64,000 nt of DNA from Candidatus Multivorans sp. GTDB taxonomy: Bacteria; Acidobacteriota; Thermoanaerobaculia; Multivoradales; Multivoraceae. The notes below the pieces were generated by a model. That model did not search any database and was not told where the DNA came from. It saw only the letters and a list, made by a program, of their open reading frames with translations. This document shows, piece by piece, positions 43,060-50,323 of the stretch (positions within the stretch are counted from its first letter, which is position 1; each line of letters opens with the position of its first letter). The DNA lies in the NCBI GenBank assembly GCA_965224025.1, contig OZ245033.1, positions 1,760,001-1,824,000 on the forward strand, read 5' to 3'. The position numbers were made by a program, and so were the translations under genes.

Positions 43060-43566
43060 ATGAACCGCCGCCGGCTCGCCATCGCGATCGTCGGTTTCGC
43101 CGTCATCGGCCCTATCGGCGCTTTGTTCTGGTTCGAGTCCAGGCTCGAAGCGAGACTGTCTCAGCGACCCGAAGTCGGTATGGTGTTCCCCGCCCTGCCG
43201 GGCCTCGCCGACGGCGAGTCCCTGCCGGCCTCTCCGGGCCGGCTTCGGGTCGTTACTTTCGCCAAGGCCGGCTGCGGCAACTGCGACCGCACGATCGCCA
43301 CGTTCCGGCGACTCGCGGTTGACGGCGAGCTCGACTTCGACCTGATCGCGGTCATCGCGGGCGCTGAAACGACCGAGCTCGACGACACGGCCACCCTGCG
43401 CCCGATCGCCGACCCGACCACTTCGATATCCAAGCGCTTCGGCGTGGTCCACGTACCGCTCGTCTTTCTGGTCGACGAGCACTCCCGGATCCGGGCCGTC
43501 ACAACCGGCGAACAGCCCGAGGCCGCCTGGCGCTCCTTTCTGGGAATCGAAACCGATGCGCTCTGA
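43060..43566 (+). CDS. Membrane-anchored thioredoxin-fold (TlpA/ResA-like) CxxC protein
   Basis: N-terminal TM; VGMVFPAL; VVTFAKAGCGNC; FGVVHVPLVFLVDEHSRI (cis-Pro loop). Confidence 0.8.
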   Translation: MNRRRLAIAIVGFAVIGPIGALFWFESRLEARLSQRPEVGMVFPALPGLADGESLPASPGRLRVVTFAKAGCGNCDRTIATFRRLAVDGELDFDLIAVIAGAETTELDDTATLRPIADPTTSISKRFGVVHVPLVFLVDEHSRIRAVTTGEQPEAAWRSFLGIETDAL

Positions 43567-43574
43567 TCCGTCTG

Positions 43575-44177
43575 ATGATGCGCTCTGATCCGTCTGATAA
43601 GGCCCGCCGTCGACGGTTGGCTGCCGCCGGGCTCATCTTCGCCACCGGCCTGATGGCGGTCGCAGTCCGCGCTGTCGGGCCCACCCTGGACCGCCTCGCC
43701 TGGGCAGCCTCCATCGACCCTTCGGCGCCGGGGCCCGGCCAGATCGTTCGACAACAAAAACGCTCCGATTGCGGCCCGGCCGCGCTCAAGATGATCCTCG
43801 ATCACCACGGCGTCGCCAGCGCCACGCTCGCCGAGCTGGAGGTCGCCACCGGCACAGGCCCGGACGGCACCAGCATGCTCGCCCTGAAGAAGACCGCCGA
43901 GCAACGCGGTCTCGCCAGCCAGGGACTCCGCCTGCCGGTTGAGCGGCTGTACGACATGCCGATGCCCGCGATCGCCCATGTCCACGGCGATCACTTCGTC
44001 GTCATTCGCAGCGCCGGCGAGGAACTGGTCATCGACGACCCGTCCCTGGGCCGCCTGCGCATGAGCACCAGGACCTTCGAACGTTCCTGGGACGGCGTCC
44101 TCCTGGCCTTCACCGGCGGTCCACCAACGTTTTCGCGGACGGAAAGAAACCCGTCCATTTCGCCCAGCAACCCTTAG
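43575..44177 (+). CDS. Stand-alone C39 cysteine peptidase with N-terminal signal/anchor
   Basis: VRQQKRSDCGPAALKM (Q, C); GTSMLAL; DHFVV (H); VIDDPSLG (D); FERSWDG; no ABC domains attached. Confidence 0.9.
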   Translation: MMRSDPSDKARRRRLAAAGLIFATGLMAVAVRAVGPTLDRLAWAASIDPSAPGPGQIVRQQKRSDCGPAALKMILDHHGVASATLAELEVATGTGPDGTSMLALKKTAEQRGLASQGLRLPVERLYDMPMPAIAHVHGDHFVVIRSAGEELVIDDPSLGRLRMSTRTFERSWDGVLLAFTGGPPTFSRTERNPSISPSNP

Positions 44178-44318
44178 CCCCTCAAAGGGAGAACAACCAT
44201 CAACCACTCATCCAAACGCGCCGTCGGACCGATGACCGGCGCCAACTCTTCGACCGACCCGAACACCATGAACCACAACGCCCCCTTCACACACACAACA
44301 CCGAAAGGACGCCCCTCC

Positions 44319-47448: not shown

Positions 47449-48727
47449 ATGGCGACCTTCACGAACCCGAGCAGCCGGGCGGACCTGCTGCTGACCCTTG
47501 CGCGGCTGTCGTTCCCGGACGCCGTACGGCGGGCCAACCAGCCCGTGGCGGTGGCGATCCTGATCGCCGTTCTGTTTCTGGTGTTCGCGACCGTCGCCAC
47601 ATTCGGCCTTCTGCCCGTTCTGTTCACCCTAGAGAGCGACGCCCTGCAGCGCAATCTGCTGAACCTGATGGCCTGCTCCGCTACGGCGTTCGGGCTGCTC
47701 GCCCAGGTGGCACTCCGAGCACCGACCACGTGGCTGCTCGATCTGGACGACCTGCTGCGGCTGCCGGTGGGTTTCCGAGACCTGTACGGTCTCCGTTTCG
47801 CTCTGAGTACGATGGGGTACTGGCTCCTTGTTCTCGGTCCCGCAGGCGCCTATCTCACGGTCATGAGGTCGGGAGGGATCGCCGGAGTACCCGTCACGTT
47901 GCTGGGCATCGTGAGCCTGGTCTGGATCTTCGGCCGTGTGGTTGCGGTCTTGTCGCTCTTCGCCGACCGTTGGGTCGAAAGTGCGCTCACCATACTGGCC
48001 ATGATGATGATCATGGCGCTCTGCCAGTTTGCGATCCTCGTCGGCGTAATGGCCTTCGGAGGAGAGCTCGATTCCGAAGGGGTCGCTCGGGCAATCGAAG
48101 GTTCTTCAGCTCTCGGCGGCCTCGGCTACACGCCGCCGGGACTTGTCGCCGGAATCGTCCACGAACCGGGCTGGTCGGCGTCGAATCTGGCGAGACTCGG
48201 AAGTCTGTTTGCCGCTCTCGGCGTCTTGATCGTGCTGGAGAACCGGCTCCTTCTTCGCAGCTACCTCGATCATCCCGGTGGTGACCGCCGCGCCGCTTCT
48301 GGAGTACTGCCTCTGGCGCGGATGCTCCGCGGGTCGCGCCGCCTCAGTTCCTTGGGCGTTCTCACGGTGCTCGAGACGGAATGCCTGTTGCGTGCCCAAG
48401 AGGATACCGGCGACCATCAGGCAGGACGCGACGAGGAAGAACGGCCAGCCGAACCAGTCGAGCGGCGCGAAGTTCGGGGCCTCCCTTCTGGTTCCGCAGC
48501 TGGCCCTTGGCCCAGCCTTCCTCACCTTCCTTCTGTACGTGCTCTACGACGGGCAGCGCGTCAGCCCACTCACTGCCGGCCTCATCGCCGCCGCGGTCCT
48601 CCTCCTCGCTGCCGTTGCCGCATACGCCTCGCCCCGGCGGCAGGAACGCGTGCTCAAGGCGCGCGGACGCGAACTCCTGCTCGAAGACCCCGCCGAAGAC
48701 CCTCCGAAGCTACCGAGCCCCTCCTGA
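47449..48727 (+). pseudogene. Second permease paralogue with an internal deletion/frameshift near 48395
   Basis: Aligns by eye to the 45521 protein up to LTVLETEC; the C-terminal helices (GAKFGASLL...RRQERVLKARG) continue in another frame. Confidence 0.7.
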
Positions 48728-48758
48728 CCACTCACAACCACGAGGAACTCCGAAACTC

Positions 48759-49547
48759 ATGGAAGCAATCAAGGCAGACAACCTGACTCGGTCCTTCGGC
48801 GGCAACGTCGTCGTCGACAGCGTGGATCTCGACGTCCAGGAGGGTCAGATCCTGGGGTTCGTCGGTCCCAACGGGGCGGGCAAGACGACGACCTGGTCGA
48901 TGCTGACCGGGCTGCTCAAGCCCACGAGCGGCACGGTCCGCCTGCTGGGCAAACCGGTCGACGTGAACGACACGGAGCTCAAGCAGCAGCTCGGCATCGT
49001 GCCGGACCAGAGCATCCTCTTCGAGAGCTTGACCGGAGAGGAGTTGCTGCTGTCGTACGCCCGCATCTACGGCCTGAGCCGCGAAGACGCCGGGCAACGA
49101 ACAGACGAGGCGCTCGCCGTTTTCGACCTCGAGGAGGCCGCCAAGCGACCGATCACCACCTACTCCCACGGTATGAGAAAGAAGATTCGCCTCGCTGCGG
49201 CGACCCTGCACGCGCCGCGAGTTCTGTTTCTCGACGAGCCGTTCGAGGGCATGGACGCCCTCAGCGCGCGCACCGTCATGTCGATCCTGCAGCAGATGGC
49301 CGAGCAGGACGGCGTCGCCGTGTTCCTGACGTCCCACATGCTCGACTACGTCGAACGCGTGTCGAGCCATATCGCCGTCATCCGGGACGGCAAGGTGCTC
49401 CTGTCCTGCTCCCGGGAGGAGTTCCGCGAGCTGCCCGACGCCGAGGGAGAAGACGGCGCCGGTCGGCTCGAGAACCTCATTCTCAGTATCTCCAGACGCG
49501 AGAGGTTCTCCCGCCTCTCGTGGATCGGCAACAGGAGCAAGACATGA
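48759..49547 (+). CDS. ABC transporter ATP-binding protein
   Basis: GPNGAGKT; YSHGMRKK signature; LFLDEPFEGMD; LTSH. Confidence 0.93.
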   Translation: MEAIKADNLTRSFGGNVVVDSVDLDVQEGQILGFVGPNGAGKTTTWSMLTGLLKPTSGTVRLLGKPVDVNDTELKQQLGIVPDQSILFESLTGEELLLSYARIYGLSREDAGQRTDEALAVFDLEEAAKRPITTYSHGMRKKIRLAAATLHAPRVLFLDEPFEGMDALSARTVMSILQQMAEQDGVAVFLTSHMLDYVERVSSHIAVIRDGKVLLSCSREEFRELPDAEGEDGAGRLENLILSISRRERFSRLSWIGNRSKT

Positions 49548-50323
49548 CCGAGCCTTTCCAAGACACCGACGGCCTGCGCCGGACCGGGCCGACCGGAGAC
49601 CAGCCGCAGGACCGCGGAGGTTGGCCTAGCGCCTTGATCGGGATCGTCACCTCGCCGCGAACGAGCTTCGAGATCGTGCGCCGGAGGGCACCCTGCCTCG
49701 GTGTTGTCGTCCTCCTCCAGGCCAGCGCCGTCTGCCTTGCACTGCTGTCGTCATCGTTCGGCCTCCAGGTGCGGCGTGCCCAACTCACTGAGATGATGCC
49801 GGGACAGCCGGACCAGGTCGAAGCCTTGATGGCCCAGGCGGAGCAGTCGATGGCTGTGACGCGATCGATCGCGGCCGGCGGCGCCGCTCTCCTGACGGCT
49901 ATCGTCTTGCTCGTGCAGGCCGTGTTCGTCTGGCTCCTGGCGATTGCGTTCCAGGGCCGCCCGCGGTTCGGACAAGCCCTCTCGCTGATGGCGCACGTCG
50001 GCGTGATCGCCCTCCTCAGGAACTGGGCCAACTTTGGCCTCCTCCACTTTCGGGACCTGAGTGCGATCCGATCGCCGCGGGACCTGCAGGTCCCAATGGG
50101 AATCGACCTCTTCCTGGCAGGAGACAGTGCCGCGCTCAACGCGGTCTGGGCAAGCATCAACCCGTTCACGATCTGGCTCCTCGCACTGCTTGGCCTGGGC
50201 GCCGCGGCGGTCCTCGGTCTGTCGCAAAGGCAGGGTTTCACGCTCGCCGGCATCTACTGGGCGGCGACGACCACGCTCTCCGCGGCAGCGGCAGGCGTGG
50301 CTAGCCGCCTCACGCCCGGGTAG
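49544..50323 (+). CDS. Yip1 family membrane protein
   Basis: GIVTSPRTSFEIV; ~5 TM; FGQALSL; INPFTIW; ATGA overlap with the ATPase gene. Confidence 0.75.
   Translation: MTEPFQDTDGLRRTGPTGDQPQDRGGWPSALIGIVTSPRTSFEIVRRRAPCLGVVVLLQASAVCLALLSSSFGLQVRRAQLTEMMPGQPDQVEALMAQAEQSMAVTRSIAAGGAALLTAIVLLVQAVFVWLLAIAFQGRPRFGQALSLMAHVGVIALLRNWANFGLLHFRDLSAIRSPRDLQVPMGIDLFLAGDSAALNAVWASINPFTIWLLALLGLGAAAVLGLSQRQGFTLAGIYWAATTTLSAAAAGVASRLTPG

Follow-up and report, generated by a model that had tools for sequence, protein, structure and literature searches.

A conserved locus pairing Sec-like, double-glycine-type peptides with a stand-alone C39 peptidase: a candidate periplasmic route to class II-like bacteriocins

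Within the window (the whole 64,000-nucleotide stretch of Candidatus Multivorans sp. DNA analyzed here), a run of genes pairs small peptides bearing both a Sec-like N-terminus and, in two of the three, a double-glycine (GG)-type motif with a membrane-anchored C39 peptidase that is free of any transporter domain. The locus is interpreted, with moderate confidence, as encoding class II-like and probably two-peptide bacteriocins that would be exported by Sec and then matured in the periplasm by disulfide formation and C39 cleavage, with the ABC and Yip1 proteins acting in immunity or release. Double-glycine and Sec leaders are treated as alternatives in reviews, and no description of an architecture combining a Sec signal, a GG leader and a free C39 peptidase was found in the literature searched. 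Profile searches likewise returned no characterized family of this architecture. The arrangement of signal, leader, detached exported C39, oxidoreductase and ABC/Yip1 partners advanced in an earlier, sequence-only reading of the locus passed all of the comparative tests that were run, while three of its details did not hold: a GG motif in the first peptide, an intact second permease, and the label of RiPP. The last is overstated; since disulfide formation is the only likely modification, the peptides are better called class II bacteriocin-like or microcin-like.

Organization of the locus

All of the named genes lie on the + strand within positions 43060-50323 (Table 1). The coordinates and the PF03412 match agree with the earlier placement of a thioredoxin and a C39 peptidase lacking a transporter domain upstream of the small ORFs, and the PF00005 and PF04893 matches do the same for an ABC ATPase and a Yip1 protein downstream.

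Table 1. Features of the locus, in window coordinates
Feature	Coordinates	Strand	Evidence
trx: membrane-anchored thioredoxin-fold protein (CGNC), predicted periplasm-facing	43060..43566	+	weak profile matches, N-terminus
C39: stand-alone double-glycine cysteine peptidase, 200 aa, N-terminal anchor/signal	43575..44177	+	PF03412
pre1: 107 aa, 'type P', Pro/Cys-rich	44319..44642	+	RBS, Sec-like N-terminus
pre2: 109 aa, 'type D' precursor	44694..45023	+	RBS, Sec-like N-terminus, GG motif
pre3: 98 aa, 'type E' precursor	45109..45405	+	RBS, Sec-like N-terminus, GG-type motif
perm1: intact polytopic membrane protein, 540 aa, probable ABC permease	45521..47143	+	
perm2: disrupted permease copy	47449 to about 48727	+	tblastn
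ABC transporter ATPase (DrrA-like/ABC-2-type partner)	48759..49547	+	PF00005
Yip1-domain/YknW-like polytopic membrane protein	49520..50323	+	PF04893

Precursor peptides

The three small ORFs had been described as each carrying a ribosome-binding site and a Sec-like N-terminus, and this description is upheld by AAGGA-type motifs 5-10 nt 5' of all three starts (AAGGA, 9 nt before pre1; GAAGGA, 10 nt before pre2; AAAGGAAG, 5 nt before pre3), by n-regions with 1-2 positive charges and by h-regions whose best 8-residue Kyte-Doolittle mean is 2.5-3.2. The further claim of double-Gly-type leaders holds for pre2 and pre3 and fails for pre1, in which VELAVYG is not a GG motif. The signal of pre2 spans roughly residues 1-19/21 (ASA|SA|AP), its pro-region ends in NELAQLTGG (G56-G57), and its 52-aa hydrophobic core bears Cys66, 92, 95 and 106; homologues in loci L026 and L027 retain ELAQLTG[GA], D60-W61 and all four cysteines. 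In pre3, also represented in both of these loci, a signal is followed by a pro-region ending in TAEAIRGA (G52-A53) and by a Gly/Ala-rich, hydrophobic core of 45 aa with Cys60 and Cys96 close to its two ends. Among the genus loci, type E never occurs without type D. The type P peptide pre1, with the Sec-like signal MKMRIALLSGLLTLAAGAALA and five cysteines, belongs to a type that is the first small ORF in 19/19 genus loci and has a dN/dS of about 0.63 overall and 0.38 over its first 24 codons, the latter measure being 0.31-0.53 across all six peptide types.

These features extend to 63 genus and 25 distant peptides, in which signals were called by heuristics of our own on charge, hydropathy and small residues. 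The n-region is net positive in every one save the doubtful L032_2 (net 0), the h-region reaches an 8-residue mean of at least 2.15 in 88/88, and most have small-residue -3/-1 sites. The GG motif exceeds chance, with the defining rule passed by 39/44 non-P genus peptides (shuffle mean 14.0) and 20/25 distant peptides (shuffle mean 6.7), and Leu at -12, which lies outside the definition of the rule, is found in 34/59. None of the 19 pre1-type peptides passes, and since this type is present without a GG motif in all 19 loci, at least one product is left unexplained by C39 cleavage.

The C39 peptidase and its thioredoxin-fold neighbor

The peptidase matches PF03412 with an E-value of 2.4e-31 (108.8 bits, cut-off 22), and Q60, C66, H140 and D155 are invariant among 16 sequences. 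Its nearest solved relatives, LahT150 (6mpz), PCAT1 (4ry2) and the ComA peptidase domain (3k8u), are all double-glycine proteases. The family is one of short proteins, at most 350 aa in 149 of the best 150 representatives at 50% identity, and a hydrophobic 15-mer precedes the C39 domain in 114 of the 123 representatives with a complete N-terminus. The N-termini of trx and C39 are alike, each an Arg-rich patch followed by a single hydrophobic segment, and the catalytic domain of C39 is predicted to lie outside the cytoplasm by the positive-inside rule alone. Several distant homologues also carry K/R after the hydrophobic segment. A complex prediction for C39 residues 45-190 with pre2 residues 22-80 scored 0.33 against 0.08 for the best of three controls, at least 78% of contacts being shared between runs and partner pLDDT being at least 47. 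The mark it passed is reached by 58/80 solved complexes and 2/110 mismatched pairs, and at scores of 0.60 or lower by 7 of the 80 solved complexes and by both passing mismatches. The prediction offers weak support for the pairing, and its pass may reflect memory, as similar complexes are already solved.

The trx protein has one CGNC motif and an N-terminus of MNRRR preceding a hydrophobic stretch, and its Pfam matches (Redoxin, Thioredoxin_2 and AhpC-TSA) fall short of the respective cut-offs (best E 3.5e-5). In 18/18 genus loci the C39 gene is immediately preceded by a homologue, and in 20/25 distant loci a trx gene lies upstream. The CxxC motif of 17/18 genus copies is CGNC, unlike the classic oxidase motifs; the distant copies include eight with CPHC and six with other C-x-H-C forms, which are oxidase-type motifs. 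The two loci with Cys-free cores (L104 and L107) also lack trx. As a candidate oxidase or isomerase, trx may act on the disulfides of the peptides, although it could serve the C39 enzyme instead; a cysteine protease needs protection in an oxidizing compartment. MauE is present as well in two Bacteroidota loci (a Pfam match in L109, a similar ORF bearing CGCFG in L112) and is reported as a DsbB substitute in the available part of a 2026 preprint; this genome has three MauE matches and none to DsbB or VKOR.

Permeases, ATPase and Yip1 protein

The two permeases first described are reduced to one intact gene, perm1, and one broken copy, perm2. No Pfam or NCBIfam match was obtained for perm1, and its AF2 model (pLDDT 48) is unusable; in the Atlas clusters closest to it in language-model features, 10-21% of members bear 12TM_1, ABC_export or ABC_tran_2, which serves as a lead only. 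As its type is found only in the three genus loci that hold D+E peptides, perm1 is probably an ABC permease cognate to this pair. In a tblastn comparison with the L028 permease, residues 1-317 of perm2 are in frame, about 318-400 are missing, 401-426 are inverted (48397-48474), and 441-528 lie in another frame. It is a disrupted copy of the type associated with B+C peptides in other genomes, and either decay to a pseudogene or a rearrangement of the assembly would account for it; in run X3, the contig of a relative shows extra letters and the uninverted order, and run X1 agrees with the form in the window.

The ATPase matches PF00005 (E 2.4e-30) and, under the cut-off of 312, TIGR01188 drrA (219.8 bits). 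The Yip1 protein matches PF04893 above its cut-off (E 1.5e-9) and is a candidate immunity or transporter-assembly factor. Its gene is present in 18/18 genus loci, six of which have two copies, and downstream in 17/25 distant loci. The ATPase is found on the same strand in 10 of the distant loci and the permease profile in three, several of these contigs ending early.

Conservation and evolution of the cassette

The linkage on which the proposal depends recurs widely. The cassette occupies the same chromosomal site with the same gene order in 18/18 fetched genus genomes, a count that represents one inherited locus in kin that are not independent, and each genus locus holds 3-4 fast-changing peptides with a signal, a GG motif and two cysteines. 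Peptides with signal and GG motif also follow the C39 gene in 8/10 paralogous C39 loci, and they are paired with an anchored C39 in 23/25 distant loci with a stand-alone C39, from Ignavibacteria, Bacteroidota, Acidobacteriota, Gemmatimonadota, Poribacteria, Planctomycetota and others. Genus peptides are only 26-74% identical or are replaced outright, compared with 78-98% identity for the ABC ATPase over 18 genus loci. The D+E pair is found only alongside the cluster-1 permease (3/3 loci, on which this co-variation rests) and is absent from the two genomes with the closest C39 (94% and 92% identity). Such turnover of peptides and permeases is conflict-type evolution.

Relation to known systems

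The nearest known counterparts are the bacteroidetocins, the PCATs and the periplasmic FapD. The PCAT/AMS systems (PCAT1, LahT, ComA and CvaB, acting on class II bacteriocins, microcins and pheromones) share the peptidase family and catalytic residues of the window C39 and recognize the same kind of motif, the GG-leader consensus being hydrophobic residues at -12, -7 and -4 followed by GG or GA. Their peptidase domains, however, are cytoplasmic and fused to the transporter, and cleavage is thus coupled to export; no PCAT was found in this genome (100% completeness), whose only two C39 domains both stand alone in open frames of 269 and 282 aa. Sec-dependent class II bacteriocins, such as enterocin P and divergicin A, likewise leave the cell through an N-terminal Sec signal with no dedicated exporter, but unlike the window peptides they lack both a second pro-region and a C39 step. 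Among Yip1-associated transporters, YknWXYZ of B. subtilis reportedly protects against SDP.

The bacteroidetocins of Bacteroidales, small GG-leader peptides with 2-4 cysteines and disulfides, also come from diderm producers and have a dedicated thiol oxidoreductase gene and a multi-TM protein beside the peptide gene, according to the part of the source available (Coyne et al. 2019, PMC6671954). As described there, double-glycine peptidase and ABC exporter are one protein (a PCAT, with the peptidase as its N-terminal domain) and the precursor has only a leader of 15-16 aa and no Sec signal, whereas the present locus has a separate 200-aa anchored C39, a Sec-like signal before the GG pro-region, a DrrA-like ATPase and a linked Yip1. 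FapD of the Pseudomonas Fap amyloid system is a stand-alone, exported and active C39 peptidase, of a periplasmic class termed uncharacterized and with an unclear target in the sections available (Rouse et al. 2017, PMC5557850). It belongs, in that account, to an amyloid secretion operon without canonical GG substrates, whereas an obvious candidate substrate set for the window C39 is encoded next door, and the latter scores only 49.4 bits against the FapD model (cut-off 330). Yip1 and ABC genes occur together, beside genes for hydrophobic peptides, in leaderless and circular bacteriocin clusters (PMC11580447) and together in YknWXYZ, with a proposed role in immunity or transport (PMC11580447; PMC10598978). 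Those systems, as far as the available portions of these sources describe them, are Gram-positive, make leaderless or circular peptides and have no C39 or thioredoxin, and the window Yip1 falls under the YknW_fam cut-off (NF052650; 69.7 vs 110 bits).

Proposed maturation route and its alternatives

Each precursor would be a prepropeptide made up of a Sec-type signal, a short pro-region with hydrophobic residues at -12, -7 and -4 before G-[G/A/S/T], and a Gly/Ala-rich core of 40-52 residues with a Cys near each end. Translocation by the Sec system would be accompanied by removal of the signal, probably by signal peptidase I, and the anchored trx would form or correct the disulfide, probably with the help of a MauE-type oxidase whose gene lies outside the locus. 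The anchored C39, its catalytic domain in the periplasm, would then cut after the GG-type motif and release the core. The cores are most likely class II-like bacteriocins acting in pairs (D+E here, B+C in most relatives), and the large permease, ABC ATPase and Yip1 protein would protect the producer and/or expel peptides from its membrane. No outer-membrane component is present in the locus, although the host is a diderm acidobacterium and the core a hydrophobic peptide of 45-52 residues.

The N-terminal segment of the precursors could alternatively stay uncleaved and, as a signal-anchor, hold the pro-peptide at the inner membrane, leaving the anchored C39 as the only processing enzyme, which would free the core much as sortases or rhombosortases do. 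Several h-regions are indeed long, peptides L023_2 and L109_1 gave no small-residue -3/-1 site, and in the distant loci the GG motif lies only about 15-20 residues past the hydrophobic segment, thus near the membrane plane and within reach of the anchored C39. This arrangement is nevertheless unlikely, as A-x-A-like sites lie 15-24 residues into most peptides, and the 20-45 variable residues between h-region and GG motif in the genus are a length that a tether does not need. Rather improbable too is that maturation proceeds as proposed but yields signaling peptides, or components of the producer's own membrane or envelope, with ABC/Yip1 as handling machinery. The window holds no linked sensor kinase or response regulator, close relatives swap peptide types together with the matching permease while orphan or decaying permeases persist, and bacteriocin clusters typically include Yip1 and ABC partners. 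The cores, moreover, are Gly/Ala-rich, hydrophobic, hairpin-like sequences of 40-52 residues, which sets them apart from pheromones and brings them close to the cores of class IIb bacteriocins and microcins. What speaks for such a role is that C39/GG processing also yields pheromones (as with ComA substrates), that the locus is fixed and syntenic in 18/18 genus genomes, unlike many mobile bacteriocin islands, and that every locus has kept its type P peptide.

Processing in the cytoplasm, from internal starts or with an irrelevant N-terminus, would make the locus a PCAT split into separate genes, with a cytoplasmic C39 cutting the leader and the ABC transporter exporting the cores. It would accord with the characterized GG-leader peptidases, all cytoplasmic except FapD, with the ATPase and permease encoded downstream, and with an internal Met shortly 5' of the motif in both pre2 and pre3. 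The internal Met of pre2 (Met48), however, is not conserved in L026 and L027, the former reading PLAPTELAQLTGA, and RBS motifs stand at the long starts and not before internal Met codons. The signal region is under purifying selection and is found in 23/25 distant loci, the ATPase is DrrA/ABC-2-like rather than of the PCAT/ABC-B type and was not seen in 15/25 distant loci, and the anchored thioredoxins and MauE encoded at these loci belong to families with functions outside the cytoplasm, as the MauE preprint abstract also indicates, all of which makes this account very improbable. High-GC DNA is also rich in spurious frames (106 ORFs of at least 40 aa in 13 kb of this 68% G+C genome), yet the chance that the small ORFs and their motifs are such coincidences is negligible, given homologous ORFs of the same architecture in 19/19 genus loci and in other phyla whose loci have a low G+C content (30-53%), dN/dS below 1 and a motif rule passed far above shuffles.

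Should the periplasmic route hold true, peptides of the general secretion pathway would be trimmed outside the cytoplasm by a free-standing, membrane-anchored 'double-glycine' protease, and this would be so across several phyla.

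Gene organization of the cassette

The cassette occupies positions 43060-50323 of the forward strand (see table), and the gene set proposed for this interval by the sequence-only reading is confirmed with two corrections, one concerning the second permease (perm2) and the other the first peptide precursor (pre1). A scan of positions 42400-50700 for promoters and terminators was uninformative: its single promoter-like site lies on the wrong strand, and its terminator-like hairpins all fall inside coding regions. An exact 22-nt tandem duplication (43555-43576 and 43577-43598) lies across the stop codon of the thioredoxin-fold gene (trx) and the start of the C39 peptidase gene. 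These two genes overlap by about 8 nt in relatives (the same-genus locus L023, for example, has the end of trx at 2187 and the beginning of the C39 match at 2180). In the window the duplication separates them and provides C39 with an extra N-terminal Met (MMRSD...).

Features of the cassette and their positions in the window
Feature	Position	Strand	Description
trx	43060-43566	+	168 aa; one CGNC; MNRRR, then a hydrophobic stretch
C39 peptidase	43575-44177	+	200 aa; PF03412
pre1	44319-44642	+	Small ORF; Pro/Cys-rich, type P
pre2	44694-45023	+	Small ORF; reads ...PLAMNELAQLTGG, then APDWVVAGC...
pre3	45109-45405	+	Small ORF; reads ...ISDQTAEAIRGA, then LAWKWKC...
perm1	45521-47143	+	540 aa; polytopic
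perm2	47449-48727	+	Disrupted permease
ABC ATPase	48759-49547	+	ABC_tran match
Yip1-domain protein	49520-50323	+	Pfam Yip1 match

The window has a G+C content of 68%, and an AAGGA-type motif stands 5-10 nt 5' of the long start codon in each of pre1, pre2 and pre3. By charge and hydropathy heuristics, all three carry a positive n-region followed by a strongly hydrophobic h-region. A model in which pre2 and pre3 begin at internal starts is rejected on the position of the ribosome-binding sites, on Met48 of pre2, which is not conserved, and on the dN/dS of the N-terminal codons. Indeed, Met48 is replaced by Pro-Thr in the same-genus locus L026, where ELAQLTG[GA], D60-W61 and the four Cys residues of pre2 are invariant, and over the first 24 codons all six peptide types of the genus have a median pairwise dN/dS of 0.31-0.53 (0.45-0.63 overall), these values being rough since dS is near saturation. 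Judged by such sequence features, the peptide genes are evidently real, with the long starts in use.

Double-glycine leaders had been proposed for all three precursors. This holds for pre2 and pre3, in which the leader ends in GG or GA with hydrophobic residues at -4, -7 and -12, while pre1 belongs to a Pro/Cys-rich type that lacks the motif altogether. Profile searches place the C39 peptidase and the Yip1 protein above their Pfam cut-offs, as anticipated, and give no NCBIfam or Pfam match, bacteriocin families included, for pre2 or pre3. Distant peptides approach curated bacteriocin models only below threshold (e.g., TIGR03949, 14.4 against 21.5; TIGR04149, 15.1 against 25), and none of 13 peptides (3 from the window and 10 from other loci) reaches a curated family cut-off. 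A search of the Atlas with pre2 also returned no usable match.

The Yip1 protein scores 38.4 bits against the Pfam model (cut-off 28.6) and 69.7 against the YknW_fam model NF052650 (cut-off 110). The ABC ATPase matches ABC_tran and reaches 219.8 bits with TIGR01188 (drrA), below the 312 required. No Pfam or NCBIfam family was matched by perm1, for which the Atlas offered feature-level leads only (12TM_1 and ABC_export) and an AF2 model built from a 10-row alignment has a mean pLDDT of 48 and a pTM of 0.34, values too low to support a fold comparison. The sequence-only reading counted two permeases here, and the second proves to be disrupted: compared with an intact relative, residues 1-317 of perm2 are in frame, residues ~318-400 are gone (a loss of about 80 codons), residues 401-426 are encoded by a 78-nt inverted piece at 48397-48474, and the C-terminus is in a third frame. 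The window form is found in sequencing run X1, possibly the source sample, and a contig of a related strain from run X3 holds the missing perm2 letters in uninverted order.

The 305-nt spacer between perm1 and perm2 (47143-47449) shares 84-92% nucleotide identity with same-genus loci L026 and L027, more than the peptide genes do, and in view of this conservation may contain promoter or regulatory sequence serving the genes 3' of it. Remnants of peptide genes of types B and C (see below) were searched for in this spacer and none was found.

A stand-alone C39 peptidase and its family

The window C39 matches PF03412 with 108.8 bits (cut-off 22; E 2.4e-31). Residues Q60, C66, H140 and D155 are invariant in an alignment of 16 stand-alone C39 members and line up with those of LahT150; we take C66 and H140 to be the catalytic Cys and His, D155 the catalytic Asp and Q60 the oxyanion Gln. 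The earlier observation that the protein lacks transporter domains is borne out, with an open frame of 269 aa and a protein of only 200 aa, and it does not have the PCAT/AMS architecture of a C39 domain fused N-terminally to a TMD and NBD (~700 aa). Its NCBIfam matches cover just the first ~110-180 positions (mostly ~110-140) of models for PCATs (ABC exporters with a fused N-terminal C39 domain), FapD and FilB, all far below cut-off: 88 bits with the PCAT model TIGR03796 over its first 142 positions (cut-off 853), 49.4 with the FapD model NF058616 (330), which sets it apart from FapD, and 25.2 with the FilB pilus-system model NF050078 (475).

The window C39 is tentatively predicted to cut GG/GA leaders, as the adjacent ORFs bear the motif and a weak complex prediction points in the same direction. 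The C39 domain with the pre2 pro-region scored 0.33 (best of three controls, 0.08). The mark used was passed by 58 of the 80 solved complexes and by 2 of the 110 mismatched pairs; with scores of 0.60 or below, as here, just 7 of the solved complexes pass, together with both of the passing mismatches. The runs showed at least 78% contact agreement with a partner pLDDT of at least 47, and the score may reflect memory, since similar complexes have already been solved.

When a profile of the 16 stand-alone members was searched against 1.84 billion representatives, 220 proteins were found at E 1e-30 or better. Among the best 150 of these, 149 are no longer than 350 aa, and a hydrophobic 15-mer lies N-terminal to the catalytic domain in 114 of the 123 with complete N-termini, so that this exported-type class comprises at least 114 clusters at 50% identity. 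The N-terminus of the window C39 (ARRRRLAAAGL..., 43575-43680), like those of several distant homologues in the same alignment (e.g., ...RRRKFLAAAGLGG...), resembles a twin-arginine signal. An RR pair precedes the hydrophobic segment in 10 of the 16 aligned members and in only 30 of the 114 family representatives, and the Tat route was consequently rejected as a family trait; Tat export of some members is possible on the basis of these N-termini.

The window genome (100% completeness) contains just two stand-alone C39 genes and no PCAT. The second, at G000:C1:3369946-3370470, encodes an anchored protein of 214 aa that is 53% identical to the first, and paralogues occur also in relatives. At 8 of 10 paralogous loci, the C39 gene is followed by ORFs that combine a signal with a textbook leader, for instance ELLSDEELAAVSGG. 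The second C39 gene of the window genome (1405-2049 of the fetched region L002, minus strand) adjoins an apparent transposase fragment and is followed by a 100-aa ORF (1021-1323, minus strand) whose N-terminus is signal-like and which bears LTDAELADITGRG. No trx, ABC ATPase or Yip1 match was found in the 12.5 kb fetched for it (L042).

Peptide types and permeases within the genus

A stand-alone C39 was found in all 36 same-genus genomes; C39 matches in other families of the order fall mostly in frames of 700-1500 aa, the size of PCATs (two are 340-380 aa). The order SNF2 helicase, trx, C39, 1.4-2.1 kb of variable DNA, permease(s), ABC ATPase and Yip1 is kept in 18 of 18 fetched genus loci. In every locus, 3-4 ORFs of 75-122 aa lie in the variable stretch, and each combines a ribosome-binding site with a signal-like N-terminus, a spacer and a core that contains Cys. 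These 63 ORFs were sorted into six types: P (Pro/Cys-rich and always first, n=19), A (n=5), B (n=16), C (n=16), D (n=4, of which L032_2 is doubtful) and E (n=3), with pre1, pre2 and pre3 assigned to P, D and E, respectively.

A rule for GG-type leaders, defined as G-[G/A/S/T] preceded by hydrophobic residues at -4 and -7, with a Cys no more than 12 residues away, is satisfied by 39 of the 44 peptides of types A-E, compared with a mean of 14.0 for shuffles of the same sequences, by 20 of 25 distant peptides and by 0 of 19 type P peptides. Of the 59 peptides of the genus and distant loci that pass, 34 have Leu at -12, a position outside the rule. Hydrophobic and rich in Gly and Ala, the cores usually carry a single Cys toward each end. 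The type P peptides, the first small ORF in all 19 genus loci (the window and L023-L040), have a conserved signal (MK.RIALLSGLL...) and a Pro-rich core with 2-5 Cys residues (...ELAVY.PCGC.P.PGCPFP... or ...P.PCDD...). None was recognised in distant loci.

Type B always occurs with C, and D with E if the doubtful L032_2 is excepted, and this constant pairing suggests two-peptide products. Only the window, L026 and L027 have the D+E pair, and only these three loci have a cluster-1 permease, directly 3' of the pair; loci with B+C have other permease clusters. An 'orphan' permease of the B/C type is kept in L026 and L027 and persists as a decayed copy in the window, where perm2 looks like the decaying partner of B+C peptides that the genome no longer encodes. 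The two genomes with the closest C39 (94% and 92% identity) carry B+C and not D+E, so peptide-plus-permease modules have apparently been exchanged. Across the genus loci, the peptides are 26-74% identical or replaced, and the ABC ATPases 78-98% identical.

Conservation beyond the genus

The 16-member profile was also scanned against one genome per species, and 31 non-genus loci were examined. These comprise 25 with a stand-alone C39 (frames of 330 aa or less), five with longer frames (four of 732-747 aa, the size of PCATs, and one of 438 aa) and one cut by a contig end. The linkage that the sequence-only reading called for is widespread: the next same-strand downstream ORF or ORFs in 23 of the 25 stand-alone loci have a signal-like N-terminus, a GG-type motif (e.g., QLDSNEMMQITGG and SLSQVEMQIVAGG) and a Cys-rich hydrophobic core next to an anchored C39. 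The downstream ORF of L103 is atypical (138 aa), and no signal-plus-GG peptide ORF was found at L102 or L111 even with a relaxed filter. By their record titles, the loci belong to Ignavibacteria, Bacteroidota, Acidobacteriota, Gemmatimonadota, Poribacteria, Planctomycetota, Aminicenantia and one 'Eubacteriales' MAG.

Profiles built from the cassette proteins and applied to the same strand of the 25 loci, several of whose contigs end early, detected trx in 20, Yip1 in 17, the ABC ATPase in 10 and the permease in 3. Pfam annotation was run on five distant loci. In L110 (37% G+C), the same order is retained, namely an AhpC-TSA/Redoxin thioredoxin, C39, peptide, a 523-aa permease without a Pfam match, ABC ATPase and Yip1. 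Local departures from this plan were also seen. Two ORFs of 238 and 220 aa without a Pfam match stand at the place of the ~530-aa permease in L097 (6060-6776 and 6781-7443), and L106 (7412-9886) has genes for a HlyD-like adaptor and a MacB-type permease after Yip1. In L109 (7238-7702) and L112, the gene after Yip1 encodes a MauE/DoxX protein bearing a CGC motif, and no ABC ATPase was found. The peptides of L104 (5462-5734) and L107 (5456-5710), from MAGs titled Poribacteria and Planctomycetota, combine a signal and ...IKGG with a core free of Cys, and an 846-864-aa ORF lies upstream in place of trx.

The thioredoxin-fold protein and its partners

The window trx, a candidate TlpA/ResA/DsbE-like oxidoreductase, bears CGNC and an N-terminal anchor. 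All of its Pfam scores lie below cut-off (the best is 24.1, against 26.6), and no relative was found in a PDB sequence search at E 0.01. Its distant counterparts exceed the cut-off, that of L110 matching AhpC-TSA with 78 bits. The active site of the upstream trx in distant loci reads CPHC in 8 and another C-x-H-C in 6, which we take to be of the DsbA and PDI kind. The two related loci without Cys in their peptide cores, L104 and L107, are also without trx. The partner of trx may be the peptides or else the peptidase's own Cys.

The site of action of MauE, and of anchored thioredoxin-fold proteins of this type, is extracytoplasmic. MauE is added in two Bacteroidota loci, as a Pfam match in L109 and as a similar CGCFG-bearing ORF in L112. 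The window genome has three MauE matches and, in searches for DsbB and VKOR, no match to either, so an oxidising partner would be available. MauE is reported as a replacement for DsbB in a 2026 preprint.

A proposed route of export and maturation

The mechanism put forward by the sequence-only reading is, with modest confidence, the best-supported reading. The precursors would be translocated by Sec and cut by signal peptidase, the thioredoxin-fold protein would form their disulfides after export, and C39 would then cleave after the GG-type motif to release cores that may act as bacteriocins in the form of a hairpin-like hydrophobic pair. The permease/ABC/Yip1 set would provide immunity or expulsion. 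Both enzymes begin with an Arg-rich patch and then one hydrophobic segment only, from which the positive-inside rule predicts that the trx and C39 domains lie outside. C39 cleavage is regarded as coupled to ABC export and located in the cytoplasm, and a model of cytoplasmic processing would retain that site; the Sec-like signals of the precursors, the predicted outward orientation of the two enzymes, the site of action of the trx and MauE families, the lack of a PCAT and the availability of MauE together argue for the extracytoplasmic route and make the cytoplasmic model unlikely.

Two further readings are close variants of the extracytoplasmic route. A positively charged, hydrophobic segment of ~20 residues precedes the GG leader in every case examined, and it may serve as an uncleaved anchor rather than as a signal that is removed. 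Alternatively, the peptides may be matured likewise and have a non-toxin function. A role of the accessory genes in immunity or expulsion is suggested by the co-variation of peptides and permeases, by the occurrence of Yip1 and ABC genes within clusters for leaderless and circular bacteriocins, and by YknWXYZ, which reportedly protects against SDP. The exported, bacteriocin-forming route extends to a broader proposal, to which we give about an even chance: a multi-phylum pathway of Sec-exported prepropeptides, an anchored C39 pro-peptidase with its own DsbA-like oxidase (and MauE as well in some phyla), paired disulfide-stapled hairpin bacteriocins, and immunity or expulsion by Yip1 with or without the ABC ATPase.

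Relation to known systems and significance

Double-glycine leaders and Sec signals are regarded as alternative export tags of bacteriocins. The peptides depart from the class II pattern of a leader at the extreme N-terminus and PCAT export in having an additional N-terminal segment and a genome without a PCAT. Judged by gene content, the cassette is predicted to be a variant of class II bacteriocin maturation that is conserved across several phyla. Bacteroidetocin loci (PMC6671954) encode a four-Cys peptide, whose GG leader of 15-16 aa is cut after GG, together with a multi-TM protein, a thiol oxidoreductase and a PCAT. The logic of peptide plus oxidoreductase is common to both systems, whereas the window system differs in its detached, anchored peptidase, its extra Sec-like signal, its other type of ABC protein and its Yip1. 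FapD is a periplasmic C39 of a class called uncharacterised, with an unclear target, in PMC5557850, and no other studied exported C39 was found. For leaderless and circular bacteriocins, clusters with Yip1 and ABC genes are noted in PMC11580447. A search of open-access papers and bioRxiv found no description of signal-plus-GG precursors with a stand-alone exported C39; one may exist in a subscription journal.

Peptides, anchored C39 and permease all escape the NCBIfam and Pfam models. As standard bacteriocin and RiPP models miss the peptides, an anchored C39 beside thioredoxin and Yip1 genes would offer a handle for genome mining, with sources in uncultured Acidobacteriota, Ignavibacteria, Bacteroidota and others, whose antagonistic chemistry is little known. 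If the proposed route is true, oxidase, peptidase and precursor would form a compact three-gene module usable for the periplasmic release of disulfide-bonded peptides, and these peptides would be the first natural substrate class for exported stand-alone C39 peptidases. Leader removal would then be uncoupled from transport, with both tags on one precursor, and the double-glycine leader would be a portable recognition tag, independent of ABC export.
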